Shown here piece after piece: positions 3,057 through 33,153 of a stretch of DNA of 64,000 nucleotides (its first letter is position 1; each line of letters begins with the position of its first letter). A program made the translations under genes and the position numbers. The notes under the pieces are model-generated. The model was given only the letters and a program-made list of their open reading frames with translations, was not told the DNA's origin and did not search any database. The stretch covers positions 4,273 through 68,272 of the forward strand of contig PWON01000093.1 of assembly GCA_003557385.1 (NCBI GenBank), given 5' to 3'. The stretch is from Bacteroidales bacterium. GTDB lineage: Bacteria > Bacteroidota > Bacteroidia > Bacteroidales > UBA7960.

Positions 3057-6044
3057 CTAAAACTGGAGGTTGACATTCAGCACAAAGACCCTTGGCCTGG
3101 GATAGATGTTGTTGTCTATTCCATTGAACACTTCGGGGTCGAGTCCTTCATATCCTGTAATCATAAAGGCGTTTTGCACAATGGCCGACAGGCTCAGGTT
3201 GGCGCCTGTATTCATTACGTTGTAAAAGTTATATCCAAGAGTTATGTGGTCCATCTTGAAGAAGGAACCGTCCTGGATATAAAAGCTTGACAGGTATTGC
3301 GCCTGGTTAAACATGATGTCGAGCGCATCTGCAGTGATGTTGCTCAGATAGGGGCCCTCCGGACGGTGAAGCCTGCTCAGTTCGCCGTTCATTGAGCTTA
3401 CGTTGTTGTACACGTAATTGCCAAGGCTGGCACGGCCTGCAAATGAAAACGTCCAGTTTTTATAATGCAACTCAGATGTGAGGCCAAAATAATACTTGGG
3501 TATGGGACTCTTGAAATGGACCAGGTCGGCAGAGCTGATCTCCCCATCTCCGCTGATGTCGATATACACCCCCTCAATGGGGTTGCCATCTTCATCGTAC
3601 ACTTGTTGGTAAATATAGAAGGCATTGGGAGACTGCCCGACACTGTGGATCTGCGCAAAGTTGCCCACCCCGCCGGAAATTCCACCGGTTTGTACTCCAA
3701 TGTAAGTAGGATCATCCACGGCAGTGAGCCTGGTGATTTTCGTGTCGTTGTAGGTAGCATTGAACCCGAGTTCCCAGCGCAGGTTGTCCCTGACGATCGG
3801 GCGGGTAAATATGCTGAATTCCACCCCTTTGTTTTCCATGCTGCCAATGTTGGTCAGAATAAAGTTGGTCAGGTTGGTGCCTGCAGGGATGGGGATGAAG
3901 TTGATCAGGTCTTCTGTTTCGCGGAAATAGATATCAATGGAGCCGTAATACCTGTCTTCAAACAATGCATAATCGATCCCTGCATTGTAAGTGGTGGTTT
4001 CTTCCCATTTGATGTTGGCATCATAACCTTCCGGACGCCAGGTGGAGAGGAAGTTGCCGAGGCCAAAAGGATAGCTGGCCCCTTCGCGGCTGCGCGTATA
4101 ACGGGCCAGGTAGGGATAATAGTCACCACCGATATTTTGTTGCCCCGTAACACCATAACCCAGCCTGAGTTTCAGTTCATTGAACTGAGGCAATGCATCC
4201 ATGAAACTTTCCTGGTCGATCCGCCATGCAAAGGCTGCCGAAGGGAATATGCCGGAGCGTGTTTCGGGCGAGAAACGGGAAGTATGGTCGTTACGCAGTG
4301 TAAAGGTTAAAATGTAACGGTTCTTGAAGTAGTAGTTTGCCCTTCCGAAGAAGGAGATCAGGTAGTGCTCGCTTTCGTACTCCAGGTCTTGAAACACCCT
4401 GAAATCGGTTCCGGCAAGGTTGCCCTCAATATTGCTTGAATAGCTGAAACCCTTTAGCCAGAAGTGCTGCCAGGAGTAACCTGCCATAACATCAAAACGG
4501 CTGTCAATCGATGGAATCGATCTTTCATAATTCATATAGAAATCGATCAATTCGTTTTTCCTTTCCTGACCATATTCGCCGATAGAACCACCGCTGACAT
4601 AAGCCCATGCAGCGTAATCGGGTGTAAAGTTTGTGCCTTCCGACTTGGAATAATCATAGGCCACATTCAAGTTGGCCTTGAGATCCGGTAGCCAGTGCAG
4701 CCTGTAGTCCAGCTGGGCATTTCCAATGAAACGGTTTACAGTGGATTCGTTGTTGGTGAGATCCAGCAGGGCAACCGGATTGCTGGTTGCTACAGCTTTA
4801 GGGATTCCCGCTTCTTCCCAGGTGAAATAGCCGCCAAATTTTCCGTCTTCAACCATCACGGGCTGTGTTGGGTCAAACATGACGGCGGCACCAATAGCCC
4901 CCTCGTTGGCAAACTGGTTCTCAATATTCACCCCACGCAAGTTCAGGTTAACGTTCAGGTGATCGTCGAGCAGGCTGGGGTTTAAATTGATTGACATGGA
5001 AGCCCTTTCGATGTGGTCCCTTTTCAGAACACCTTCCTCAGCTTTGTAACCAATGGCGACACGATAAGGAATGCTTCTGTAAGCTCCGGTAGCGCTAAAT
5101 GTATGGTCATGGGCAATGGCATCCCGGAATATCTGGTCTTGCCATACGGTGTTTGCATCGCCCAGCATGCCTGTAACGGCCGGCCGGTCTGCGTAACGCT
5201 CGTTGATCAGGTCGCGGAACCGTTCTGCGCTGAGTACATCAGCTGTCCTGATATTTGAAGACAAAGAGTAGGTGCCTGCATAATTCAGTTGCAAAGGCAT
5301 GTCCTTTTTCCCTTGTTTGGTGGTGATGATGATTACCCCGTTGGAAGCCCTTGAGCCGTAGATGGCTGTTGCTGAGGCATCTTTTAGAACGGTAAATGTT
5401 TCAATGTCGTTGGGGTTGATTGTGGAAAGCGGGTTCCTTAGTCCCGGAACACCTGCGCTTTCGATCGGAACCCCGTCAATGACAATGAGCGGGTCGTTGT
5501 CGGCCGACAAAGATGAACCTCCCCTGATGCGAATGGTTTCACCGCTTCCCGGTGCACCTCCTGCAGATGTTATCTGCACACCAGGCATTTTGCCACGGAG
5601 GAGCTCAGCGGGGGTGGTGATATTGCCCCTGTTGAAATCGCGGTCGCCAACTACAGAAACGGAGCCTGTGGCATCTTCCCTGCGTTGAACACCGTAGCCG
5701 ATCACAACAAACTCTTCCAGGATTTCAATATCGAGCATCAGCTCAAAATTGATGGTTACCGTTTCACCGGCACCAACAGTAAGGGTGCGCACCAGCGGTT
5801 CATAACCCAGAAAGCTGCCCACCAGGATCACTTCTCCTGCGGGGACACTCAATGTGAACTCCCCATCGATATCAGTGACAGTTCCAATGGTGGTCCCCTG
5901 GATGATTACGTTAGCCCCGGGTAAGGTTTCGCCAGTTTGCAAATCGCTGACGACCCCGGTAACTGTACCTCTTTGTGCAAATGCAAATGAGCTGATAAGC
6001 AGCATCATAAGCAAAGGCAACATGCGTTTGGTTGGTTTTGTCAT
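3057..6044 (-). CDS. SusC/RagA family TonB-linked outer-membrane transporter
   Basis: 995 aa with a signal peptide. It has an N-terminal carboxypeptidase-regulatory-like domain (GTVTGVVSD...GANVIIQGT), a plug (VVIGYGVQRREDATGSVSVV), a long beta-barrel and a terminal ...NVNLQF. Confidence 0.95.
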   Translation of the reverse strand: MTKPTKRMLPLLMMLLISSFAFAQRGTVTGVVSDLQTGETLPGANVIIQGTTIGTVTDIDGEFTLSVPAGEVILVGSFLGYEPLVRTLTVGAGETVTINFELMLDIEILEEFVVIGYGVQRREDATGSVSVVGDRDFNRGNITTPAELLRGKMPGVQITSAGGAPGSGETIRIRGGSSLSADNDPLIVIDGVPIESAGVPGLRNPLSTINPNDIETFTVLKDASATAIYGSRASNGVIIITTKQGKKDMPLQLNYAGTYSLSSNIRTADVLSAERFRDLINERYADRPAVTGMLGDANTVWQDQIFRDAIAHDHTFSATGAYRSIPYRVAIGYKAEEGVLKRDHIERASMSINLNPSLLDDHLNVNLNLRGVNIENQFANEGAIGAAVMFDPTQPVMVEDGKFGGYFTWEEAGIPKAVATSNPVALLDLTNNESTVNRFIGNAQLDYRLHWLPDLKANLNVAYDYSKSEGTNFTPDYAAWAYVSGGSIGEYGQERKNELIDFYMNYERSIPSIDSRFDVMAGYSWQHFWLKGFSYSSNIEGNLAGTDFRVFQDLEYESEHYLISFFGRANYYFKNRYILTFTLRNDHTSRFSPETRSGIFPSAAFAWRIDQESFMDALPQFNELKLRLGYGVTGQQNIGGDYYPYLARYTRSREGASYPFGLGNFLSTWRPEGYDANIKWEETTTYNAGIDYALFEDRYYGSIDIYFRETEDLINFIPIPAGTNLTNFILTNIGSMENKGVEFSIFTRPIVRDNLRWELGFNATYNDTKITRLTAVDDPTYIGVQTGGISGGVGNFAQIHSVGQSPNAFYIYQQVYDEDGNPIEGVYIDISGDGEISSADLVHFKSPIPKYYFGLTSELHYKNWTFSFAGRASLGNYVYNNVSSMNGELSRLHRPEGPYLSNITADALDIMFNQAQYLSSFYIQDGSFFKMDHITLGYNFYNVMNTGANLSLSAIVQNAFMITGYEGLDPEVFNGIDNNIYPRPRVFVLNVNLQF

Positions 6045-9026: not shown

Positions 9027-10271
9027 GGTGCTCCGAATGGCTTCCACCGGATCCAGCCGTGCAGCAGACCACGCAGGGACAAATCCTGATACCAGGCCGA
9101 TTATGGCTGAAACATTTATTCCCAGGATGATGTTGGACGCACTTAATATAAAATCGATTTCGAATACATTGGCCACAATGGCTGTTCCCACAAACACCAG
9201 CAAGAGGCCAACGCTGCCGCCCATGACACTTAATAAAACGGCTTCGAACAGGAATTGCCACAGGATAAAATAATTTTTTGCCCCCAGTGCCTTTTGAATG
9301 CCGATGATGCTGGTACGCTCCCGGACGCTGACAAACATGATGTTGGCGATGCCAAACCCACCCACCAGGATGGAGAACCCTCCTATGATCCAACCGGCCA
9401 GGGTAATGATGGCAAATAATCCATCGAATCCCTGGGACAACAAACTGGTTTCATTCAATGAAAAATTATTATCTGCAACAGGAGACAGCCTGCGGATTGA
9501 CCGCATAACCCCGGTAAGTTCATCGATCATTTCGGCATTGGAGATCCCCGGATGGGCTTTGGCCATAATGAACGGATTGAATCTGTCCTGATTGATATTG
9601 ATGAATTGTGCCAGGTAATTGATTGGAAGAATCATCGAATTATCATGGCTGTTGCCAAATCCGCCCAACCCTTCCTGTTCAAACACACCAACCACGGTGG
9701 TATTGTGCCCGAAAACCTTAACAGTACGACCAATGGGGTCAATACCAGGAAACAGATTTTCTGCCAGGTCAAAACCAATGACGGCTACATTCCTGCCCGT
9801 GGCTGATTCCAGCGATGAAAAAAACCGGCCGTCAGCCATTTCGAAATTACGAACCTGGTCGTAATCGGCAGATACACCTACAATGCTTACGTTATCAATA
9901 CTGGTATTCAGGTATTCAACGCGCCGGCTGGTTGATGCAAGGAATGCAGCTGCCTCGACGGTAACGGAACGTTTTTGCAGTTCATCAAGTTCGCCAAGCT
10001 GCGGAACAGGCCGGCTTACATAATCCCACCATCTGAAATCAGTATTGAAGGTCCAGGGCCATTTCTGAATGTACACTACATTGTCTCCAAGGGCCGTAAT
10101 ACTTGCACGTATTTGTTTTTCCAACGAATCCACTACAGAGAAAACAGATATGATGGCAAATATCCCAATGGTGATCCCCAACAATGTTAAAACAGTGCGC
10201 AGTTTATTTGCAATCACCGAAGTAACGGCGAATATGACCCCTTCTCTGATTAATTTGATGATTAATATCAT
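9021..10271 (-). CDS. FtsX-like ABC transporter permease (MacB/LolE type)
   Basis: 416 aa with an N-terminal TM helix, a large periplasmic domain and three C-terminal TM helices. The ...ARLDPVEAIRS end is typical of the FtsX family. Confidence 0.85.
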   Translation of the reverse strand: MILIIKLIREGVIFAVTSVIANKLRTVLTLLGITIGIFAIISVFSVVDSLEKQIRASITALGDNVVYIQKWPWTFNTDFRWWDYVSRPVPQLGELDELQKRSVTVEAAAFLASTSRRVEYLNTSIDNVSIVGVSADYDQVRNFEMADGRFFSSLESATGRNVAVIGFDLAENLFPGIDPIGRTVKVFGHNTTVVGVFEQEGLGGFGNSHDNSMILPINYLAQFININQDRFNPFIMAKAHPGISNAEMIDELTGVMRSIRRLSPVADNNFSLNETSLLSQGFDGLFAIITLAGWIIGGFSILVGGFGIANIMFVSVRERTSIIGIQKALGAKNYFILWQFLFEAVLLSVMGGSVGLLLVFVGTAIVANVFEIDFILSASNIILGINVSAIIGLVSGFVPAWSAARLDPVEAIRSTG

Positions 10272-14576: not shown

Positions 14577-15050
14577 TCAGCGGATGCCGGCAACTTCTCC
14601 GCGTGTAGTGGAGTAGTTCACCCTGAGGGCATTGACCATCCGCAATTCCTGTTTCACATCGGTGACAATGCCCATCCTGGTATCCCTGTCCACTTTGAGG
14701 GAGGTTGTCATCAGCGGCCTTTCTGCTTCGGCAGTGGCTTGTCTTTCTGACTCAATAAAGGAAGCAATGTCATCAACGGTTGCAAAGGAATCATACAATT
14801 GTATCCTTGGCTCCGTGCCAAATACCTGTGATTGTAATGGCGGCCCGATATAGATAAAACTGACGAGTGAACGTCGTTCCAACTGCTGTATTTCTGTAGC
14901 GGAAGGAAGAGAAGTTCTGACAAATAGCGTAGTTTCCCGCATCACGGTGGTTACCATGAAAAAGAACAGGAGCATGAAGATGATGTCAGGCAGTGATGCC
15001 GTATTGATTTTCGGGTTTTTTTTCCCGCCTTCTTTTCTGAATCTTGCCAT
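14577..15050 (-). CDS. ExbD/TolR family biopolymer transport protein
   Basis: 157 aa with a single N-terminal TM helix in the typical INTASLPDIIFMLLFFFMVTT context. Confidence 0.85.
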   Translation of the reverse strand: MARFRKEGGKKNPKINTASLPDIIFMLLFFFMVTTVMRETTLFVRTSLPSATEIQQLERRSLVSFIYIGPPLQSQVFGTEPRIQLYDSFATVDDIASFIESERQATAEAERPLMTTSLKVDRDTRMGIVTDVKQELRMVNALRVNYSTTRGEVAGIR

Positions 15051-22500: not shown

Positions 22501-23910
22501 TCATTGTATGATTAATTTTGTGTTCCATTGGCCGGTAGCATGACGCAATGATACAATATACACTCCTGCATGAAGGTTTGTTGTATCCATTGCCGTACTG
22601 TATCTGCCGCTTGTCCATGCGGTTATTTGGGTTGAACGGACAATGCGGCCGCTGCTGTCCATTACCTTGAGTGTATAATTGCCTGGCATTTTGATGGCAA
22701 ACGCAATAATGGCATTGTTGATTGCCGGATTTGGGTATACGGATAAAGGATTGCTGCTATGCTGATCTTGCACCGTGTCAAAACCGGTTTCATCCCCGTT
22801 GTCATCGTCCTCCCCGTCATCGCCATTGTCATTTGCTTCAGGTGCTGTAAAAGATGGGATTTGTTTGGTGATGCAATGAATGGCTCCTTCCCAGTGAATC
22901 ATTGCGTTGCAATTGATGCCGATAACCTCTTTGCCGGGCATCAGCCCCCGGTAAATCTGCAGTGCATGCTCGTCGAGGGGATCGTCATAAACCGGGACCA
23001 ATACCGCATTGTTGACAATAAGGCTGTTGATATATGTTTTCCAGTTTTGAGCTTTTGGGATTTGCACGATTTGATAGGTTTTCCCTTCCGGGTGCTGAAT
23101 TGATTGCAAGATGTTGTAATTGTCCTGCAAAACCAGATAATCTTCGTGCCATGCATCCACTGTGCTTATAATGAATGTGGTGTCATTGAGCAGTTTGATC
23201 TGCATATCGAGGTGGCCCCAGTAATCATTGGTCATGGGCAGAAATACAAAGATGTGCTCTATGCCCATGTATGTGTTGAATATTCCATCGATTTCCTCTT
23301 GCTGAACACCGGGGTTGTTGGTGTATATCCGGTTGGTTGCAAACAACCGGTTGTGGTTGTCTACCATATAATTGCCTCCATCAAACACAATATGCGAGAA
23401 ATCATAGTAGTTTATGCCCCAGTAACTTGCAAGTCTTTCAGGCAAATCCTTGTCACCGTGGTTGGCGGCGAAATCATCGAAGCCCACAAAAGCCAGTGAA
23501 TCGTTGTCGAAAATGCTTAGCGGTCCGTGATCCCTGATCCAGATCCGATCACCGTAAACATCTATAAAAACGATTTGATCCAAAGAAACACCATGATTCT
23601 GGAACGTGCTGATCATTTGCTGACGGTGGTTGTCTCCATTGGTTTGCATGAATACGGTGGCATGCGATTGTATGCCATCGACCACTGCGACAACAATTTG
23701 GTCGTAGCTTTGGTTGTTCCCCGGGTTCCAATACATCACTACACCTGCAACGGTGTCATATTCCGCAATGGGTTGCGGATTAACCGGATGAACTGCATTT
23801 CCGCTTTGATCCCCTGGCATGGCGTAAAGTGACAAGAACGACAAACCACAGATGACAAAGGCGAGAAACGGCAAATAAAAATTAATATGATTGTATTGCT
23901 TTTGTCCCAT
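22501..23910 (-). CDS. Agmatine deiminase / Porphyromonas-type peptidylarginine deiminase family protein with T9SS C-terminal sorting domain
   Basis: 469 aa with an N-terminal signal/anchor. It has WIRDHGP and the catalytic-Cys context EGAIHCIT, an acidic NDNGDDGEDDDNGDE linker, and a ~80-aa C-terminal beta domain (SVYPNPA...GVYIVSL...KLIIQ). Confidence 0.8.
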   Translation of the reverse strand: MGQKQYNHINFYLPFLAFVICGLSFLSLYAMPGDQSGNAVHPVNPQPIAEYDTVAGVVMYWNPGNNQSYDQIVVAVVDGIQSHATVFMQTNGDNHRQQMISTFQNHGVSLDQIVFIDVYGDRIWIRDHGPLSIFDNDSLAFVGFDDFAANHGDKDLPERLASYWGINYYDFSHIVFDGGNYMVDNHNRLFATNRIYTNNPGVQQEEIDGIFNTYMGIEHIFVFLPMTNDYWGHLDMQIKLLNDTTFIISTVDAWHEDYLVLQDNYNILQSIQHPEGKTYQIVQIPKAQNWKTYINSLIVNNAVLVPVYDDPLDEHALQIYRGLMPGKEVIGINCNAMIHWEGAIHCITKQIPSFTAPEANDNGDDGEDDDNGDETGFDTVQDQHSSNPLSVYPNPAINNAIIAFAIKMPGNYTLKVMDSSGRIVRSTQITAWTSGRYSTAMDTTNLHAGVYIVSLRHATGQWNTKLIIQ

Positions 23911-24254: not shown

Positions 24255-25193
24255 ATGAAAAAATTGTCTGTTATTGCATTTGGAGGAAACGCCCTGTTAC
24301 GCAGTGGCCAAAAAGGCACGATTGACGAACAGGAGCAGAATGTTTATGAAACCTGTCAACACCTTGTGCCACTTATTCAAAAAGGGTATGATCTGGTGAT
24401 CGGGCACGGCAACGGCCCCCAGGTGGGCAATGTATTATTGCAGCATGAGGCCGGACATCAGATTTATGGCCTGGCCAAGCAGCCCATTGATTTTTGTGTT
24501 GCAGAGACCCAGGGTTCTATCGGGTTTATGATTGAACAGCAATTGCGCAATGTGTTGGCCGAACATGGTATTCAGCGCAATATTGTAACCCTGGTAACCC
24601 AGGTGGTGGTGGACAAGGAAGATCAGGCATTCAAAAATCCCACCAAGCCGGTTGGCCCCTTTTATCCCAAAGAAGAGGCCGACAAACAGGCACGTGAAAA
24701 TCAATGGGTGTTTCATGAGGACCCCAGGAAACGTGGCTGGCGCAGGGGGGTCGCTTCACCAAGGCCCTTGGACATTCCCAACTGGGAAGCTGTCGAAAAG
24801 CTGGCCCGCACAGGCACCATCGTGATAACCGTAGGTGGTGGTGGCATTCCTGCCTATATTGATGGCGGCAAAATGGTAGGTATCGATGCGGTGATCGATA
24901 AGGATCTGGCGTCATCTTTGCTGGCCAATAAGATCAAAGCGGATGAGTTTTGCATCCTGACGGATGTTCCCAATGTGTTTATAAATTTCCATAAACCTGG
25001 TGAGAAAAAACTCGGAAGGGTAAGCGTTGAAGAGATCAGCCGGCACCTTGACGAGGGCCAGTTTACTGAAGGCAGCATGGCACCCAATGTACGCGCCTGT
25101 ATCCAGTTTGTGGAAAGTGGGGGCAAGGATGCCATCATTACCGAGGCCGGTCAACTGGGCAAACCCGGGTCCGGTACTGTAATCCTGCCCTGA
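24255..25193 (+). CDS. arcC: Carbamate kinase
   Basis: 312 aa with MKKLSVIAFGGNALL and GHGNGPQVG motifs and typical length. Confidence 0.95.
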   Translation: MKKLSVIAFGGNALLRSGQKGTIDEQEQNVYETCQHLVPLIQKGYDLVIGHGNGPQVGNVLLQHEAGHQIYGLAKQPIDFCVAETQGSIGFMIEQQLRNVLAEHGIQRNIVTLVTQVVVDKEDQAFKNPTKPVGPFYPKEEADKQARENQWVFHEDPRKRGWRRGVASPRPLDIPNWEAVEKLARTGTIVITVGGGGIPAYIDGGKMVGIDAVIDKDLASSLLANKIKADEFCILTDVPNVFINFHKPGEKKLGRVSVEEISRHLDEGQFTEGSMAPNVRACIQFVESGGKDAIITEAGQLGKPGSGTVILP

Positions 25194-25245: not shown

Positions 25246-26247
25246 ATGGCTTTTAATTTAAGAAACAGAAGCTTTTTGAAGCTTTTAGATTTTACCCCAC
25301 AGGAGATCAAATTCTTACTCGACATGTCTGTTGACCTGAAAAAGGCAAAATATGGCGGATATGAGCAGCAAAAACTAAAAGGAAAAAACATTGCCCTGAT
25401 TTTTGAAAAGGCATCCACCCGTACGCGATGTGCATTTGAGGTAGCTGCTTTTGATCAGGGCGCCCTGGTTACCTATTTGGGACCCAGTGGCAGCCAGATC
25501 GGCAACAAGGAATCCATGAAGGATACTGCCCGCGTTTTGGGCCGGATGTATGACGGCATTGAGTATCGCGGTTTTGCCCAGACCACGGTTGAAGAACTTG
25601 CGGAATATTCCGGGGTCCCTGTATGGAATGGCCTGACCAATGAATTTCATCCTACCCAGATCCTGGCCGATTTTCAGACCATGATGGAACATTGCGATAA
25701 ACCATTGCATCAGGTTTCTTTCTGCTATTTGGGTGATGCCCGCAACAACATGGGGAATTCCCTGTTGGTTGGTGCGGCAAAAATGGGAATGGATTTCCGT
25801 GCGGCAGCCCCCAGGTCGGTTCAGCCCAGTGAAGAACTGGTGGCAGAATGTCGTGCGATCGCCAAAGAAACCGGGGCAAAAATAACCATTACGGAAGATG
25901 TAGAGGAAGCGGCAAAAGGTGTTGATTACCTGTATACCGATGTTTGGGTTTCGATGGGGGAACCGGACGAGGTATGGAAAGAGCGGATCAAGCTGCTAAA
26001 ACCCTATCAGGTGAACATGGATGTGGTTAAAAAGACCGGAAACCCAAAGGTGAAGTTTTTGCATTGCCTGCCGGCATTTCATAATCGCGAAACCACCATT
26101 GGAGAGGAGATTTACCAGAAGTTTGGACTTGACGGCATGGAGGTGGTAGAGGAAGTGTTCGAATCAGAGCATTCTGTGGTTTTTGACCAGGCCGAGAACC
26201 GCCTGCACACCATCAAGGCGGTGATGGTGGCCACACTTGGTTCTTAA
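25246..26247 (+). CDS. argF: Ornithine carbamoyltransferase (catabolic or anabolic role unresolved)
   Basis: 333 aa with [25 protein letters not shown] and FLHCLPAFH motifs. Confidence 0.9.
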
Positions 26248-26339: not shown

Positions 26340-28100
26340 CTATTGTTCTTCCTGCTTTCTTTCCTTGCTTTTTGATTCTTCCTGAACGGCTTCTTCAATG
26401 GCGCGTTGTACCTCTTTCATCACATCATTGATCACCGGTCCGATCTGTTCCAGCCCTTTTCCGATTTCCTCCATGCTCCGGCCAACTCCCTCCATGACAT
26501 CCTGTAATACCGGACCAATGTGCTGCATTTCCAGGTGCAGTTCTTTCATGGTTTTGTCCACTTCCTGCATGCCCCTTTTGATATCATCCCTGATGGCATC
26601 CCAGTCGACCGCTTCAAGTTCTTTCATGGCTTCTTTAATCTGCTCCCTGGCCATACGCATCTCTTCCCGGAAGGCTTCATCCTGCAACTCTATTTGAAGT
26701 TCCTCCATGGCTTTGCGCAACTCTTCACCAGCTTTCCTGGCTTCTTCTCCTGCTTGTTGCAACTCCATACGGAATGCTTCAGAATGAAGTTTCTCAAACA
26801 CTTCTCTGTTGACTTCGGTCATGGCCTTACGAACTTCCTCCATGGCTTGCTGAATTTTCTCTCTGTCCCGTTCACTCAACCCTTCATACTGGATGGTAGT
26901 ACCGTCGTGAAGGTAAATGGTGCGTGGCTTTGACTCCTGCTTTTCTTGCTGAAGTGCAGGTGGATTGTCTGTGGCTGTTTCTTCATCCACCATCAAAGAC
27001 ACATCAAATTGGTAATATGCGTCAATGGGTGGTGCGCTGCTGCCGGCATCGGAATACAAATTAATGGTTGCGGCCGGGTTAATCCAGGCGATGGATGTCA
27101 GTGCGAATACAATGGCCAGCATGGCGGCCAGTTTTTGTCCTGTGTTCAACGATCTTGTTTTCATGGTCATCATGTGTTTAATACGTGTAAATAAATAATT
27201 TTTTGATTGGGTGGCAGCCACCATTGGTTGCGGCATGGCAGCGTCACGTTTTTTTTCTAATGTAACAAGGGCCTGTGCATAGATCAGCGGGGAACCGGTT
27301 TCGCCGACGACCCACTCGTCTACACATTGCTCCCGTAAAATCCTTATATGTTTGCTGATCCACCAGGCAGCCGGATGATAAAAGAACAATATTTCGATCA
27401 GGTTTTGCAGGGCGTTTATGTAATGATCCTTACGACGTATATGATAGAATTCGTGTAGCAAGATGGTCTCAATGTGCTCGGTGCTCATAGAAAAGAGCAT
27501 GGCTGCCGGCAAAAGGACCACCGGCTTCAGAAAGCCCATCACCACCGGGACATTCACCTTTTGCGATAATTTAACTGGTATACTTGTTTTGCAGCCTGTT
27601 TGCCGGATCAGGGCTGTAAGCTTTTGTTGCCAGCTGGCCGGCAATGGCCGGGTATGTTTTCTTTTGAGCCTGTAAATTTTTGAATAACACAAAAGGGCAT
27701 GTAATGAACATGCCAGAAGTCCTGCAAGATAAAACCAGAATACCATGGGGGTGTAGGCTTCCAGGCCTTCCAGAAAGCCAGGCTGATCTTTGTCAATCAG
27801 AAAAAATGCACGGTCACCTGCTGCGGCAATCCATGCCGTGGTATCAAATTCGAACGAAACAATTTGCCGTGCGCTGGTGTAAACGGCGTATTGCCTTACA
27901 AAAGTGTATATAAAGCTCAGGGGGATAGCCAGCAAAGCCACCAGCGACATTTTATACCGCAGGCTTGCCATACTGTTTTTTGCCAAAATCATGGCTGTGT
28001 GCCATATCAAAGCGATCAGCACGATTTGCCAGAGGCTGTGAAATACTGTCCAGCCCAAAGCGTTAATCGCCGGATGGCTGATATGTTCAATGATGCTCAT
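26340..28100 (-). CDS. M56 (BlaR1/MecR1-like) signal-transducing metalloprotease with atypical Met/Glu/Lys-rich helical C-terminal domain
   Basis: 586 aa with N-terminal TM helices and the zinc motif LLHEFYHIRRKD. A last TM helix (KLAAMLAIVFALTSIAWI) precedes a ~250-aa tail that ends in repetitive xAMxEVxK-type helical repeats. Confidence 0.85.
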   Translation of the reverse strand: MSIIEHISHPAINALGWTVFHSLWQIVLIALIWHTAMILAKNSMASLRYKMSLVALLAIPLSFIYTFVRQYAVYTSARQIVSFEFDTTAWIAAAGDRAFFLIDKDQPGFLEGLEAYTPMVFWFYLAGLLACSLHALLCYSKIYRLKRKHTRPLPASWQQKLTALIRQTGCKTSIPVKLSQKVNVPVVMGFLKPVVLLPAAMLFSMSTEHIETILLHEFYHIRRKDHYINALQNLIEILFFYHPAAWWISKHIRILREQCVDEWVVGETGSPLIYAQALVTLEKKRDAAMPQPMVAATQSKNYLFTRIKHMMTMKTRSLNTGQKLAAMLAIVFALTSIAWINPAATINLYSDAGSSAPPIDAYYQFDVSLMVDEETATDNPPALQQEKQESKPRTIYLHDGTTIQYEGLSERDREKIQQAMEEVRKAMTEVNREVFEKLHSEAFRMELQQAGEEARKAGEELRKAMEELQIELQDEAFREEMRMAREQIKEAMKELEAVDWDAIRDDIKRGMQEVDKTMKELHLEMQHIGPVLQDVMEGVGRSMEEIGKGLEQIGPVINDVMKEVQRAIEEAVQEESKSKERKQEEQ

Positions 28101-28492
28101 AGACCTTTGTGTTCAAATTGTTTCAAATAATCCCTGATCTTTTTGATTTCTTCGCCAGATACCTCATCATTGTCAAGGGCACCGATTACGAGGCGGCTGG
28201 TTGACCCCTTGAACAATCCATGGATCATTTTTCCAAGAAATTGCTGCTGGGTTTGTTCGCGGCTGACCAGGGGCATGTAGATGTGTGTGCGGCTGCTGGT
28301 ATCGCGCGACAGCATGCCTTTTTCTGTCATGATCTGCATGGTTTTTAACGTGGTGGTGTAGCCAATGTCTTTTGTGTTTTCAAGCACCTCATGCACCTGT
28401 CTGACAGTTGCTTCTTTTTTTTCCCACAATACCTGCAGTATTTCCAGTTCACTCTCTGTAGGTTGGAACGGCTTTTCCTTTTTCATTGGCAT
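28097..28492 (-). CDS. BlaI/MecI/CopY family transcriptional repressor
   Basis: 132 aa from the ATG at 28492, with winged-helix N-terminus TESELEILQVLWEKKEATVRQVHEVL. It overlaps the M56 gene by ATGA. The upstream in-frame extension to 28627 would run through the promoter and operators. Confidence 0.9.
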   Translation of the reverse strand: MPMKKEKPFQPTESELEILQVLWEKKEATVRQVHEVLENTKDIGYTTTLKTMQIMTEKGMLSRDTSSRTHIYMPLVSREQTQQQFLGKMIHGLFKGSTSRLVIGALDNDEVSGEEIKKIRDYLKQFEHKGL

Positions 28493-28510
28493 GTGCTTTA
28501 GGATCAGAAG

Positions 28511-28526
28511 TACGATAAATTTCGTA
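28511..28526. promoter_or_regulatory. Operator candidate 1: TACGA-N6-TCGTA dyad
   Basis: TACGATAAATTTCGTA in the divergent blaI-like / yjbQ spacer. Confidence 0.6.
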
Positions 28527-28527
28527 G

Positions 28528-28535
28528 CAAATATA
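28528..28535 (-). promoter_or_regulatory. Candidate -7 box (TATATTTG on the minus strand) for the blaI-blaR1-like operon
   Basis: CAAATATA on the + strand, 36 nt upstream of the ATG at 28492 and exactly between the two dyads. Confidence 0.5.
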
Positions 28536-28536
28536 A

Positions 28537-28552
28537 TACGAAGATTTTCGTA
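28537..28552. promoter_or_regulatory. Operator candidate 2: TACGA-N6-TCGTA dyad
   Basis: TACGAAGATTTTCGTA has the same arms as dyad 1, 26 bp start to start. Confidence 0.6.
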
Positions 28553-28602
28553 ATGCAAATTTTTTAAGAATTTTTTTAAAAAAATTGTACTTTGGGCAAA
28601 AA

Positions 28603-29013
28603 ATGATGCAGCAATATACCATATCACTACCTCCTTACCGGCGTGGTTTCCATCTGATCACAAACCATATCCTTGATGCCATCGGTCAATTGCCCGAAAA
28701 AGGCCTGGTGCATATATTTATCCACCATACTTCGGCCGGATTGATGATCAATGAAAATGCCGATCCTTCGGTTCAAAAGGATCTGCACAGCAGTTTTGAA
28801 CACCTGGCTCCGGAGCGCATGTCCTATTACACACATGTAATGGAAGGGGATGACGATATGCCCGCCCACATCAAATCAGCCCTGACAGGGGTGTCACTGA
28901 CCATCCCCGTTTCAGAAGGCCGGCTAAAGCTTGGCACATGGCAGGGGATCTTTCTGGGCGAATTTCGCGACCGTGGTGGCAGCCGTAATCTTACCATTAC
29001 TGTGTTTGGATAG
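28603..29013 (+). CDS. YjbQ/UPF0047 family protein (secondary thiamine-phosphate synthase-like)
   Basis: About 136 aa with the HTSAGLMINENADPSVQKDL motif typical of UPF0047. ATG at 28603. Confidence 0.8.
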   Translation: MMQQYTISLPPYRRGFHLITNHILDAIGQLPEKGLVHIFIHHTSAGLMINENADPSVQKDLHSSFEHLAPERMSYYTHVMEGDDDMPAHIKSALTGVSLTIPVSEGRLKLGTWQGIFLGEFRDRGGSRNLTITVFG

Positions 29014-29095
29014 CAGGCAGGGTTAAACATTGTGATTCTTCTGTTGTTTTATTTACATACAACCATACGTATGGATTAATGGATTTGTAAGGATT

Positions 29096-31222
29096 ATGTC
29101 TGATCAGTTTTTCAAGCCTGTTGCTTATCACGTTGAGGGAATGAGTTGTACGAATTGTGCCCTCGGTATCCGGCGGACCCTTGAAAAAGAAGGGTTTCAT
29201 AATGTAAGCGCCGATTTTACGACGGGGGAGGTGCGTTTTGATGTTGCCGACGAAAGCCGTTTGCCCCTGGCTGTTAAACGCATAGAGTCACTCGGGTATC
29301 AAGTGAAGGATGTTATCGAAACCGGGCAGGTCAGCAAAAAAGGGCTGGCTCCCATTGAAAAAAAATTCTGGTTTACCGCAGTGTTTACCATTCCGCTGAT
29401 CCTGCATATGTTTTTACCTGTGGGTATTTTACACAACGATCTTTTCCAGCTTGCCCTGACCATACCTGTATTTGTTGTCGGTTTTTTGCATTTTGGCCGC
29501 AGTGCCTGGAGTTCACTCAGATCGGGTGTGGCCAACATGGATGTGCTGATCTTCCTTGGCAGCACGGCTGCTTTTGTGTACAGTTTGATCGGTACGATTT
29601 ACGGGCTTGGCCACGACTATATGTTTTATGAAACTTCCGCCAGCATCATTTCCATTGTATTGCTTGGCAATATGATGGAGCACCGTTCAGTGCGAAAGAC
29701 CACATCGGCCATTGACGACCTTGTGCGTTTGCAGAAGAATACGGCCAGGCGCCTGGTTGTCGAGATGAACGAAGGGCAGGAAACCGTTGAAGAGATAGAT
29801 GCTTCACTGGTAGAGAGCGGGGAACGTGTCCTGATCAATACCGGTGATAAGATCCCTGTGGATGGAGAAATTTACTGGGGAGCAGGCAGTGTGGATGAAA
29901 GCCTGATTTCAGGTGAGAGCGTTCCTGTGGACAAACAAAAAGGAGACAAGGTGGTGGGAGGTACCCTGCTTGTTTCCGGCACATTGCGTGTAAAGGCCAC
30001 GGCCACAGGAAAGGATACGGTGCTGTCGCAAATCATTGAGCTGGTCAGGAATGCCCGGAAAGACAAACCCCGGTTGCAGAACCTTGCCGACAAGATCAGC
30101 ATGGTATTTGTACCCACGGTAGTAATACTTGCAATACTCACCATAGCCTTCTGGTATTTTGGCACAGACCTTCCTTTTCGTGACTCCCTGATGCGCGGCA
30201 TTGCCGTGCTGGTGATTGCCTGCCCTTGCGCCCTCGGTTTGGCTATTCCAACGGCTGTTTCGGTAGGGCTTGGGCGTTTTGCAAAAAATGGCATCCTGAT
30301 CAAAGGAGGAACAGCCATTGATAAATTTTCGGCCATTGACACCGTGGTGTTTGATAAAACAGGCACACTGACTACCGGTACCTTCCGCATAAGAAATCCA
30401 GAATGTTTTGGAAAATCTGAGGAGGAGGTACGCAGCCTGCTGTACAATATGGAAAAGCATTCCAATCATCCCATCGCCCGGGCCATCACACGCTATTTTA
30501 AGGGGGCGGGACAAATTCATTTTGAAAGGGTAGAGGAACAGAAAGGCCTTGGTATCGAGGCCGTAGATAAAGAAGGTAATGTGTTTTTTGCGGGCTCATA
30601 CAATGTGGCTTCCCATCTGACCACAGACGACAGCCATCAAGTTTACCTGCTGATGAATGACAAGCTCATTGCCTGGCTCGATCTCGAAGATGAAATCAAG
30701 CCCGGGGCGGCAGAACTGATATCTTTCCTGAAAGAAAAAGGACTGAAGACGGTACTGCTCAGCGGTGACCGTCAATCGCGCTGCGATTCCATTGCATCAG
30801 AACTCGGAATAGAAGAAGTGTATGCCGAAAAACTTCCTGACCAGAAACTGCAGGTGATCGAAGACTTGTCGGGCGCGGGAAAAGTTGCCATGGTTGGTGA
30901 TGGGATCAACGATGCACCGGCTCTGGCCAAAGCATATGTAGGAGTAAGCATGAGCGATGCAACCCAGGTAGCCGTGAAGTCGGCAGAGGTGATCCTGCTC
31001 AAGGGAGATCTGTCATTGCTTTCAAAAACATTTGGTGCCACCCGGACCACATTGCGGACCGTTAAAGAAAACCTTTTCTGGGCCTTCTTTTACAATGTCT
31101 CCGCCATACCTCTTGCCATGATCGGAATGCTTACACCCATTGTGGCGGCTTTTGCCATGGCCGCATCTGATGTGATCGTGGTATTGAACTCACTGCGTTT
31201 GAAAACCCGGAAGCTGAGGTAA
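29096..31222 (+). CDS. copA: Heavy-metal (Cu+-type) translocating P1B-type ATPase
   Basis: 708 aa with N-terminal HMA domain GMSCTNC, TM CPC motif (IACPCALG), FDKTGTLT, SNHPIA and GDGINDAP. Confidence 0.9.
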   Translation: MSDQFFKPVAYHVEGMSCTNCALGIRRTLEKEGFHNVSADFTTGEVRFDVADESRLPLAVKRIESLGYQVKDVIETGQVSKKGLAPIEKKFWFTAVFTIPLILHMFLPVGILHNDLFQLALTIPVFVVGFLHFGRSAWSSLRSGVANMDVLIFLGSTAAFVYSLIGTIYGLGHDYMFYETSASIISIVLLGNMMEHRSVRKTTSAIDDLVRLQKNTARRLVVEMNEGQETVEEIDASLVESGERVLINTGDKIPVDGEIYWGAGSVDESLISGESVPVDKQKGDKVVGGTLLVSGTLRVKATATGKDTVLSQIIELVRNARKDKPRLQNLADKISMVFVPTVVILAILTIAFWYFGTDLPFRDSLMRGIAVLVIACPCALGLAIPTAVSVGLGRFAKNGILIKGGTAIDKFSAIDTVVFDKTGTLTTGTFRIRNPECFGKSEEEVRSLLYNMEKHSNHPIARAITRYFKGAGQIHFERVEEQKGLGIEAVDKEGNVFFAGSYNVASHLTTDDSHQVYLLMNDKLIAWLDLEDEIKPGAAELISFLKEKGLKTVLLSGDRQSRCDSIASELGIEEVYAEKLPDQKLQVIEDLSGAGKVAMVGDGINDAPALAKAYVGVSMSDATQVAVKSAEVILLKGDLSLLSKTFGATRTTLRTVKENLFWAFFYNVSAIPLAMIGMLTPIVAAFAMAASDVIVVLNSLRLKTRKLR

Positions 31223-31317: not shown

Positions 31318-33153
31318 TTAACCGTTCATAGACATCAGGAACTCTTCGTTGTCCTGGGTGTGCTTAATACGATCCAATAAAAACTCCATGGCTTCCAGTG
31401 AGGTCATGTCGGCAATAAACTTGCGGAGCACCCAGATTCTGTTCATCATGTCTTTATGCAGCAAGAGGTCTTCCCGGCGTGTCCCTGAAGCTACAATATC
31501 GATGGAAGGGAATATGCGCTTATTCGATAGTTTGCGGTCAAGTTGAAGTTCCATGTTTCCTGTTCCTTTAAACTCTTCAAAGATCACCTCATCCATCTTA
31601 GACCCTGTGTCTATCAAAGCAGTGGCAATGATGGACAAAGATCCCCCGTCTTCGATATTCCGGGCAGCGCCAAAAAAGCGTTTTGGTTTGTGCAGGGCAT
31701 TGGCATCCACACCTCCCGACAATACTTTCCCGGAGGCTGGTGATACGGTGTTGAATGCCCTGGAAAGCCGGGTAATGCTATCCAGCAGGATCACTACGTC
31801 ATGCCCGCATTCCACCATGCGCTTGGCTTTTTCCAGTACAATATTGGATACCTTCACATGTCGCTCTGCAGGTTCATCAAATGTTGAAGAGACCACTTCG
31901 CCCTTTACGTTGCGGGCCATTTCCGTTACCTCCTCGGGCCTTTCATCTATGAGCAGTACGATCAGGTAAACTTCAGGATGGTTTGCCGCGATGGCATTGG
32001 CAATTTCCTGCAGCAGGATTGTTTTCCCGGTTTTTGGCTGTGCCACGATCAATCCGCGCTGACCTTTGCCAATGGGTGCAAACATATCAATAATCCTTGT
32101 GGACAGGGTTTCCCCTTTGTGTCCGGTGATCTGAAACTTTTCATCAGGGAACAGCGGGGTGAGAAAATCAAATGGCACCCTGTCGCGGACCTCAGCAGGG
32201 ATGCGGCCATTGATCTGTTCCACTTTGATCAGCGGAAAATACTTTTCATTTTCCTTGGGTGGACGGATGCCTCCTTTGACAGTATCTCCGGTTTTCAGGC
32301 CAAACAACTTGATCTGGCTTTGTGAAACATATATATCATCCGGTGAGTTCAGGTAGTTATAATCCGATGACCTCAGGAACCCATAACCATCGGGCATGAT
32401 CTCAATGACCCCCTCAGCGATTATAATGCCGTCAAATTCATATACCGGTTCTCCGGTGCGCTTGTCAAAACCTTTGGGACGCTGATAGGGCTCCCTTTCT
32501 TTGTCCTTGATTTTGGCGGGTTGGTCGGTATGTTTGTCCTTGTGGAGTTCTTCAGCAGTGACAGTATCAGTTTTTTCCGGAAAATCGGCCGGAGAAGGCT
32601 TTTGCTGCGGACGCTCCTGCTTGTCGGAGAAGTGTTGTTTTTTACCCTTTTCATGTTGTTTATCACGAACCACTGCGTCGTCTGGCCTTGTGGCCTTTTG
32701 CGCTTGCTGTTTGTCTTTTTGCTGATCTGCTTCCCCCCTTGATTCAGCAGCCTGACGTTGCTCCTTTTTACTTCGGCGACCCCTCTTTTTTTGGGTTTCC
32801 TTTTCCCTGGTTTTGTCTTGTTTTGGGGCCTGGGTTTGTTCTTTTTGCTCCGGTTTATCTGGTTGGGTCACCTTGGATTCTTCAGGTTTTTTTATGTTTT
32901 CTGATTTTTCGATGGCCTTGTTTTCAACAGAACTTCCGGCAGGAATTCGCTTGCGCGGACGACCAGGTCTGCGAGCGGATCTCTGTTCAGGCCTGCTCTC
33001 TTTCACTGGAGAGGGTTTTAAAGCCTGGGCATCAAGTATCTTATAAATAAGGTCTTGCTTTTTATATGAATCTACTTTTTTTATATCTAAGCCCCTGGCA
33101 ATGTCTTTTAATTCGGCAAGAAGCTTGTTGTTCAATTCTACAATGTCGTACAT
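31318..33153 (-). CDS. rho: Transcription termination factor Rho with ~190-aa K/Q/E/R-rich insertion after the N-terminal helical domain
   Basis: 611 aa. The Rho_N-like start is [22 protein letters not shown] and the RNA-binding domain is [15 protein letters not shown]. Walker A is [12 protein letters not shown], with a conserved C-terminal half. Confidence 0.95.

Follow-up and report, generated by a model that had tools for sequence, protein, structure and literature searches.

A probably autoregulated BlaI/BlaR-type pair with a repeat-built periplasmic tail, adjacent to yjbQ and copA in an uncultured Bacteroidales bacterium

A survey of about 15,000 M56 proteins found that the majority lack a transpeptidase domain, that true beta-lactam sensors make up about 6%, that about 96% are encoded near a blaI-like gene, and that the commonest architecture is M56 followed by a C-terminal region without identifiable domain (PMC13492132). 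The described systems closest to the one analyzed here are the 'atypical' BlaIR pairs: CenIR of C. difficile, PvmSR of P. aeruginosa and mycobacterial BlaIR. We examined a blaI-blaR pair in a stretch of 64,000 nucleotides (nt), hereafter the window, from an uncultured Bacteroidales bacterium (GenBank assembly GCA_003557385.1, contig PWON01000093.1, forward-strand positions 4,273 to 68,272), whose relatives are mostly metagenome-assembled genomes (MAGs), many of them from soda-lake sediments. As in the atypical systems, the pair comprises an M56 protease with four transmembrane (TM) helices and an HExxH motif, an adjacent upstream gene of the blaI family, and a C-terminal region of the protease without identifiable domain. 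Unlike in those systems, this C-terminal tail is about 240 amino acids (aa) long, with locally confident helices and a 27-aa repeat specific to a Bacteroidales subfamily, and the host is a didermic member of the Bacteroidota, which places the tail in the periplasm. We conclude that the locus is probably an autoregulated, atypical BlaI/BlaR pair, next to which yjbQ and the copper-pump gene copA lie by inherited gene order; copper is not indicated as its cue, nor copA as its target. The features of the pair and its promoter are as follows.

26340-28100, minus strand: blaR-like gene, whole, with a 586-aa product
27066-28100, minus strand: BlaR-like N-terminal module, aa 1-345, four TM helices and cytoplasmic M56 zinc-protease domain (Pfam, hydropathy, AlphaFold2, Foldseek)
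27441-27455, minus strand: HEFYH zinc motif, aa 216-220 of BlaR (HExxH match)
26340-27065, minus strand: extracytoplasmic tail, aa 346-586 and stop codon (composition, family alignment, AlphaFold2)
28097-28492, minus strand: blaI, winged-helix repressor of the BlaI/MecI/CopY family, 131 aa (PF03965)
28511-28526, no strand assigned: promoter-proximal operator dyad TACGATAAATTTCGTA, over the predicted blaI start site (exact match; conserved in register in about 45 loci)
28528-28535, minus strand: -7 box TATATTTG (TAnnTTTG; plus strand CAAATATA) of the blaI-blaR promoter, between the dyads in nearly all loci
28537-28552, no strand assigned: promoter-distal operator dyad TACGAAGATTTTCGTA, filling the -33/-7 spacer (exact match, conserved)
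28556-28559, minus strand: -33 element TTTG of the blaI-blaR promoter, conserved in nearly all loci

The original prediction, made from this sequence, described the blaR product as an M56/BlaR1-type protein with HEFYH before its last TM helix, and this description holds. Residues 22-308 match Peptidase_M56 (PF05569, E-value 6e-30; 104.9 bits against a cut-off of 31). With the NCBI model blaR1_generic, the score is just 82.6 bits (cut-off 400), and only residues 27-334 are covered. Hydropathy and charge distribution reveal hydrophobic segments at about residues 14-41, 49-70, 118-139 and 322-342 and a basic stretch after TM3; HEFYH lies between the last two segments, and H216, E217, H220 and E257 are invariant in an alignment of 41 homologs. 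In an AlphaFold model built from 41 homologs, the N-terminal module has a predicted local distance difference test score (pLDDT) of 85-93. Foldseek matches this module to the cryo-electron microscopy (cryo-EM) structures 8EXQ and 8EXR of S. aureus BlaR1, with an E-value of 2e-8 for 8EXQ and a TM-score, normalised to the target, of 0.65-0.69 for 8EXR. BlaR thus agrees with BlaR1 in fold and topology, as an M56 zinc protease with four TM helices. The hydrophobic segments, the basic stretch after TM3 and the AlphaFold model together place residues 343-586, beyond the last TM helix (about 322-342), outside the cytoplasm.

The TM and zinc-protease fold and topology are thus shared with BlaR1-BlaI of S. 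aureus and B. licheniformis and with MecR1-MecI. In contrast to BlaR1 and MecR1, BlaR has no penicillin-binding sensor domain, as had been predicted: neither PF00905 nor another penicillin-binding domain was found in Pfam and NCBIfam scans. There is also no beta-lactamase or penicillin-binding protein (PBP) target gene beside the pair, which is flanked by argF and carbamate kinase on one side and by yjbQ-copA-rho on the other.

The repressor was assigned in the same way. The blaI product matches Penicillinase_R (PF03965, 6e-29) and aligns end to end with MecI (1SD6/1OKR); its length is 131 aa, one fewer than first stated. The predicted ATGA overlap of blaI with blaR is present and couples the two genes translationally, and the same arrangement is found in 47 ortholog loci. 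The protein scores under the cut-offs of both the CopY_TcrY equivalog (TIGR02698, 54.1 bits versus 121.95) and the BlaI equivalog. CopY repressors are defined by a C-terminal Cu/Zn site, CxCx4CxC or CxC (PMC11672702). The window BlaI has no Cys, as the original prediction had noted, and the 6554 residues of 48 family members contain 7 Cys, none at the C-terminus. The family C-terminus is a conserved ...YLKQFE without CxC, and the CopY-defining CxCx4CxC motif is absent from the window BlaI and its 48-member family. The conserved His and Met residues (H34, M52, M55, H70, M89) fall in the part of the protein that corresponds, by alignment, to MecI's DNA-binding domain. The locus resembles CopY/TcrY of Firmicutes in having a Penicillinase_R winged-helix domain near a copA-type ATPase, but differs in lacking the Cys motifs, in its TIGR02698 score below cut-off, in having no TACAnnTGTA near copA, and in pairing the repressor with a protease.

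The evidence for autoregulation comes from the blaI promoter. Two TACGA-N6-TCGTA dyads bracketing a -7 box had been predicted upstream of blaI, and both are found as exact matches. We compared 50 ortholog loci from species-representative genomes, each 3-22 kb in length. In about 45 of the 50, TACGA-N6-TCGTA occurs twice, 25-28 base pairs (bp) apart, just upstream of blaI, and this pair is the sole strict occurrence within each locus; among the five loci without a full pair are some in which the available sequence stops before blaI or shortly upstream of it. Judged from these sequences, the pair is far beyond what chance would produce. Bacteroidota sigma-A promoters contain a -33 TTTG and a -7 TAnnTTTG, the -7 box spanning -12 to -5 (PMC9723704); by this spacing, blaI transcription is predicted to start at about nt 28523. 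In the direction of transcription, the promoter has an invariant layout: an A/T-rich tract (about 28560-28585 in the window, upstream of the -33 element), TTTG, about 3 nt, a dyad, T, TAnnTTTG, 1-3 nt, the second dyad, 2-25 nt (more in seven loci) and the ATG. Nearly all loci have 'TTTGcat' or 'TTGnnn' immediately before the distal dyad, irrespective of the gene on the far side. Because the dyads cover the -33/-7 spacer and the start site, the arrangement has the classic geometry of a self-repressed promoter. As in the BlaR1-BlaI and MecR1-MecI systems, two palindromic operators lie in the intergenic region beside the regulator operon. The half-sites differ, being TACGA/TCGTA, 6 bp apart, where those systems have TACA/TGTA, and here both dyads sit in the regulator's own promoter.

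A third match to the dyad in the 64-kb window, at 9848, lies inside an open reading frame (ORF) and has a GC-rich spacer; we judged it a chance occurrence. The distance from the promoter to the blaI ATG varies among the loci. In L005, L008, L015, L017, L021, L026 and L049, 145-260 bp or more of ORF-free sequence intervene; the leaders of L015 and L026 hold short 'aacaac/aactaac' repeats, and either an inserted element or an extended 5' untranslated region (UTR) could account for the long leader. In L007, L009, L011, L016, L022-L024, L027, L030, L035, L038-L040, L043, L045, L046 and L048, the ATG follows only 2 nt after the proximal dyad, so that the 5' UTR would be about 14 nt and leave no room for a Shine-Dalgarno sequence, which fits translation initiation in Bacteroidota.

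The double dyad is not confined to this subfamily. Scanning metagenome contigs gave at least 119 matches, and 91 of those listed lie directly upstream of a blaI-type gene. Among the listed matches, this gene is usually followed by an M56 gene, most of the tails are unrelated to that in the window, most BlaI proteins are only 40-55% identical to the window BlaI, and the BlaR proteins share the M56 module only. Since the double dyad precedes many blaI-M56 pairs with other tails, we take it to be a general, autoregulatory operator of Bacteroidota BlaI-family repressors that carries no copper-specific information. No copper gene was found beside a double dyad outside the window's own clade, among the matches listed.

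The 28 other listed matches fall at contig ends, secreted-gene loci, actinobacterial sites, satellite-like arrays and a few unexplained Bacteroidota sites. At L114:677-1111(-) and L190:1478-1903(-), a gene for a 141-144-aa secreted protein stands between the double dyad and blaI, giving a three-gene operon in other BlaI/BlaR subfamilies. In L097, L100, L136 and L184, seemingly actinobacterial contigs, GC-rich TACGAC..N..TCGTA double dyads adjoin ArsR-type helix-turn-helix genes; the operator there is apparently unrelated, its core being similar by coincidence. In L115, L121, L134 and L147, many TACGA-N6-TCGTA units alternate with 'GGTAA(n)TTATC' in AT-rich arrays, and the contigs show no bacterial ORFs close by; the arrays resemble a satellite or transposon repeat of eukaryotes whose match to the pattern is accidental. 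Two Bacteroidota-like double dyads have no blaI nearby: L157:4671-4711 is upstream of a 464-aa serine-hydrolase/beta-lactamase-like gene, and L081:1805-1847 is upstream of a 288-aa secreted DUF2911-like gene. Both could be trans targets of BlaI-family repressors.

In contrast to the protease module, the tail cannot be traced to any characterized protein, as phmmer found only one architecture, M56 plus tail. The search, against 1.84 billion representatives, returned 21 proteins, mostly M56 proteins of 520-650 aa matched at their C-terminus and a few short fragments. More than 100 protein clusters match BlaR over nearly its full length, and those with names are Bacteroidales, Bacteroidia or Bacteroidota MAGs. 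No Pfam family rose above threshold when the tail and several orthologs were scanned with Pfam and NCBIfam; sub-threshold matches to DUF948, Apolipoprotein, IFT57 and SMC were taken as composition-driven coiled-coil noise. On this comparison of sequences, the tail is a real conserved module, specific to one M56 subfamily.

The family alignment divides the tail into a variable Pro/Asp-rich linker, a beta-hairpin motif, helical repeats and a C-terminal motif. The conserved motif 'IYLHDGTTIQYEGLSERDR', at about aa 394-404, is predicted to form the beta hairpin (family form P..I.L.DG..I.WE.LSE.DR), and the C-terminal motif is 'MEEIGKGLEQIGP' (family form MEE.GK.LE..GP). Between them lies a degenerate array of 27-aa acidic amphipathic helices, whose copy number ranges from about 2 to more than 9 between orthologs. 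The consensus, derived from 102 repeat units, is (F/L)NSEEFRxEMxKAREE(I/V)RKAMEE(V/L)xRE and recurs every 27 residues; conservation is 95% for Phe5, 90% for Met9, 60% for Met20 and about 90% for E3/E4. The hydrophobic positions F5, M9, A12, I/V16, A19/M20, V23 and L27 follow a heptad-like 4-3 pattern, and the 'NSEE' start resembles a helix N-cap; on these grounds, the repeats are read as acidic amphipathic helices with Met on the apolar face. A model of the tail alone is all-helical, with a pLDDT of 75.8 overall and 81-95 for tail residues 45-180, and a predicted template modelling score (pTM) of 0.35. Thus the originally predicted repetitive, all-helical tail is borne out, as is its composition: the last 196 aa contain 13 Met, 4 His and no Cys, together with 39 Glu and a net charge of about -17. 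The charge, the Met and Phe of each repeat and the variable copy number would fit either a helical array that responds to cations, peptides or oxidants or a dimerising stalk.

Based on homology to BlaR1/MecR1 and PetP, we suggest the following mechanism. BlaI dimers would bind both dyads, whose positions are established, and thereby repress blaI-blaR. A periplasmic or envelope cue acting through the tail may then activate the cytoplasmic zinc protease, by analogy to the same proteins. The protease would cleave BlaI, giving positive feedback and de-repression of blaI-blaR and of any unlinked genes that bear the dyad. Of the possible readings, we place sensing of an envelope cue by the tail, or through it, ahead of a structural tail with sensing elsewhere, which comes second. 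The part of the original prediction that concerned a proteolytic switch with a non-beta-lactam tail and palindromic operators is hence supported, whereas Cu/Ag sensing and de-repression of yjbQ-copA are not.

The structural alternative, which we regard as unlikely, keeps the autoregulated BlaIR switch and makes the tail a dimerising coiled-coil stalk or periplasm-spanning scaffold, with sensing in the membrane, in the TM2-TM3 loop or via a partner such as a DUF3108-like protein. A repeat number that varies so widely is typical of spacers and stalks, not of a defined binding pocket. The heptad-like pattern points the same way, BlaR1 is dimeric in cryo-EM (8EXP), and PetP, mycobacterial BlaR and PvmS signal without an extracytoplasmic domain. 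However, the Phe, Glu and Met positions of the repeat are more conserved than a passive spacer needs, and the conserved beta hairpin and C-terminal motif suggest specific contacts.

The candidate partner is a secreted protein of 232-239 aa (PF21347, 7.5e-51). In 16-18 of 47 ortholog loci, its gene is the one that immediately precedes the blaI promoter and shares the strand of blaI; in the close-clade loci that carry it, it ends about 60 bp before the distal dyad. Examples are:

L013:1485-2195, L002:6853-7563, L006:7423-8133 and L044:8783-9493, plus strand: DUF3108-like gene; about 14 more loci

The DUF3108-like protein could be an accessory periplasmic partner, or its gene could simply be an ancestral neighbour. 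Against the partner role, the window has no such gene, and the gene falls outside the unit that the dyads control. Because the gene is upstream of blaI in most mid-distance orthologs and absent in the window, parsimony suggests that its loss brought yjbQ and blaI together in the window and that their 110-bp spacer is a derived state.

The original prediction had gone further than the autoregulated pair. It proposed that a Met-rich periplasmic tail binds Cu(I)/Ag(I) and activates the M56 protease, so that BlaI is cleaved and the divergent yjbQ-copA is de-repressed, a proposal that we now consider very improbable. The neighbouring genes themselves were correctly identified:

28603-29013, plus strand: yjbQ (UPF0047; PF01894/TIGR00149)
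29096-31222, plus strand: copA, Cu(I)-type P1B ATPase (TIGR01511, 550 bits; GMSCTNC, CPC, DKTGT)

Both genes adjoin the pair in the window, the dyads lie within the shared spacer, and a repressor without Cys cannot sense Cu in the CopY way. We asked whether the tail is linked to copper genes beyond shared ancestry, taking in about 150 related loci; the synteny counts use only loci with enough flanking sequence. Grouped by BlaR identity to the window, the loci gave these counts:

Close clade with tail (>=43%): copA 22/23, yjbQ 25/26, argF (ornithine carbamoyltransferase) 24/27, rho 16/16
Mid-distance orthologs with tail (34-42%): copA 0/13, yjbQ 7/16, argF 7/19, rho 0/10
Distant orthologs with tail (<=33%): copA 0/10, yjbQ 0/13, argF 0/11, rho 0/7
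M56 loci without tail (<=42%): copA 0/33, yjbQ 0/52, argF 0/47, rho 0/28

The block order in the close clade is rho-copA-yjbQ-(x)-blaI-blaR-argF-carbamate kinase. The enrichment of tail orthologs beside P1B ATPases, which the copper proposal expects independently of ancestry, is confined to this clade, and the linkage to copA is no stronger than that to rho and argF. Since these housekeeping genes are linked as strongly as copA, the linkage points to shared descent and not to selection for co-regulation. The original prediction had itself allowed that the adjacency might be coincidental.

Close-clade loci already differ in the gene that faces the blaI promoter. In the window and about 12 relatives this gene is yjbQ, placed directly there in the window, L001, L014, L018 and L019 and farther off, behind a longer spacer, in several others. 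In L002, L006, L010, L013, L020, L044 and most mid-distance loci, the DUF3108-like gene takes this place, on the blaI strand. A gene for a FadL/Toluene_X-type outer-membrane protein is found there in L007, L016 and L023, and cysE-cysK in L009 and L011. In 11 loci that we checked, another gene separates yjbQ and copA from blaI; the dyads stay with blaI and yjbQ is 0.9-2.2 kb away. Neither strict nor relaxed dyads were found near yjbQ or copA in the ortholog loci scanned. The claim that the dyads control yjbQ-copA is not supported by these data, which assign them to the blaI core promoter. We also considered yjbQ as a true partner, given its presence nearby in 7 of 16 mid-distance orthologs, and rejected it: the DUF3108-like gene mostly lies between, and yjbQ is inverted in L024 and L127.

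This inversion, at L024:9049-9456(+) and L127:3777-4184, turns yjbQ toward blaI and makes it divergent from copA, indicating that yjbQ-copA is not an obligatory operon. The yjbQ-copA spacer contains an element, AAACATT-N12/13-(T)TTGTTTTA, at 29025-29051 of the window (AAACATT at 29025-29031, GTTGTTTTA at 29043-29051). It recurs at the matching position in L001, L006, L007, L016, L018, L023, L024 and L044 and is present in most close-clade loci. The element is unlike the BlaI dyad and probably serves a separate promoter of copA, as its -33 region or as a site for a regulator. Together, the inversion and the element indicate that copA has its own promoter. No CopY cop box (TACAnnTGTA) occurs near copA, the sole match in the window being at 14794. 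We found no evidence that yjbQ and copA belong to the BlaI regulon. The copA ATG is preceded, at a distance of 22 bp, by a perfect 12-bp palindrome, CCATACGTATGG (29063-29074), which is not conserved and is absent even from L001, a relative with 92% identity.

The tail itself gives little reason to expect metal binding. Its one Met per repeat with 90% conservation would suit a copper ligand, but this Met is equally conserved in orthologs without copA linkage and lies on the heptad hydrophobic face. In the set of 41 tails, Met makes up 5.6%, His 1.2%, Cys 0% and Glu 19.9% of the residues, and the typical Met spacing is M-x10-M. The window tail contains one MxM, one HxxM/MxxH and no MxxM, and the family median is 0 for each. 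The tail model has no fold match in the PDB (best Foldseek E-value 0.85), and no sequence or fold similarity to any metal-binding protein emerged from Pfam, phmmer and Foldseek. Like SilE, PcoE and other Met/His-rich binders of Cu(I)/Ag(I), the tail is periplasmic, helical and free of Cys, with above-average Met (5.6-6.6%). It differs from them in that HxxM/MxxH and MxxM are essentially absent, His is depleted and Glu reaches 20%, in the heptad-like placement of Met and in the lack of similarity in sequence or fold. By these comparisons, the tail is not related to SilE, PcoE, CusF or CopC, and the original assignment of a Cu/Ag sensor to it finds no support.

Synechocystis already provides a Cu-dependent BlaI/BlaR-type switch: its repressor PetR, which lacks the Cys motif, is degraded by PetP when copper is present; PetP has no extracytoplasmic domain, two Met in its TM2-TM3 loop are the proposed ligands, the PetR site is GAC-N5-GTC, and the targets are petE and petJ, not a Cu exporter (bioRxiv 10.1101/2020.07.31.226407). 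Both systems combine a BlaI/CopY-family repressor lacking the CopY Cys motif with a BlaR-like membrane protease, and PetR/PetP is a precedent for extracytoplasmic metal sensing relayed by repressor degradation. Unlike PetP, BlaR carries a 240-aa tail, the equivalent loop (aa 71-117) is free of Met, His and Cys, and the operator is TACGA-N6-TCGTA. The original prediction was not aware of any description of a copper-responsive wiring of this kind; in view of PetR/PetP, it would be a variant of a described principle even if it were correct.

Least probable of all is a lineage-specific circuit in which the tail array is a new periplasmic sensor of soft metals (Cu(I)/Ag(I)) or, through Met oxidation, of oxidants, and loss of the DUF3108-like gene brought yjbQ(-copA) within reach of the BlaI operator.

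Several points weigh against the autoregulated, copper-independent pair that we favour. Binding of BlaI to the dyads, its cleavage and the cue are steps that we infer. The scissile N101-F102 bond of MecI aligns with G104-A105 in BlaI, an N-F bond replaced by G-A, so that the cleavage site is not conserved in sequence; given this mismatch, cleavage of BlaI can be neither inferred nor excluded from the sequence. The packing of the tail helices is of low confidence, as the pTM indicates, and the models are uninformative on how a signal would be transmitted. The dyad scans covered loci and contigs rather than whole genomes, so our view of the regulon is that of the operon only. Finally, the distal dyad of the window is 51 bp from the yjbQ ATG, at about -45 to -60 of the putative yjbQ promoter and upstream of where the yjbQ core promoter must lie. 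Some influence of the dyads on yjbQ in the window's lineage is conceivable, and we found no support for one.

The surrounding genes are ordinary for Bacteroidota:

22501-23910, minus strand: agmatine/peptidyl-arginine deiminase-like protein with a C-terminal sorting-type domain
24255-25193, plus strand: carbamate kinase
25246-26247, plus strand: ornithine carbamoyltransferase
31318-33153, minus strand: Rho factor with a long basic, low-complexity N-terminal insertion

The locus is of modest importance in itself, and adds a well-delimited subfamily to the large, mostly uncharacterized class of non-beta-lactam BlaI/BlaR systems. It is also cautionary, as the adjacency of a copper pump in one genome resembled a circuit that dissolves on comparison with relatives. 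The analysis provides an operator and promoter model for Bacteroidota BlaI, in which two TACGA-N6-TCGTA dyads are interleaved with the -33 TTTG and the -7 TAnnTTTG, and it defines a family of repeat-built periplasmic tails. If the tail does sense a metal or an oxidant, it would represent a new type of sensor for a widespread signalling family.

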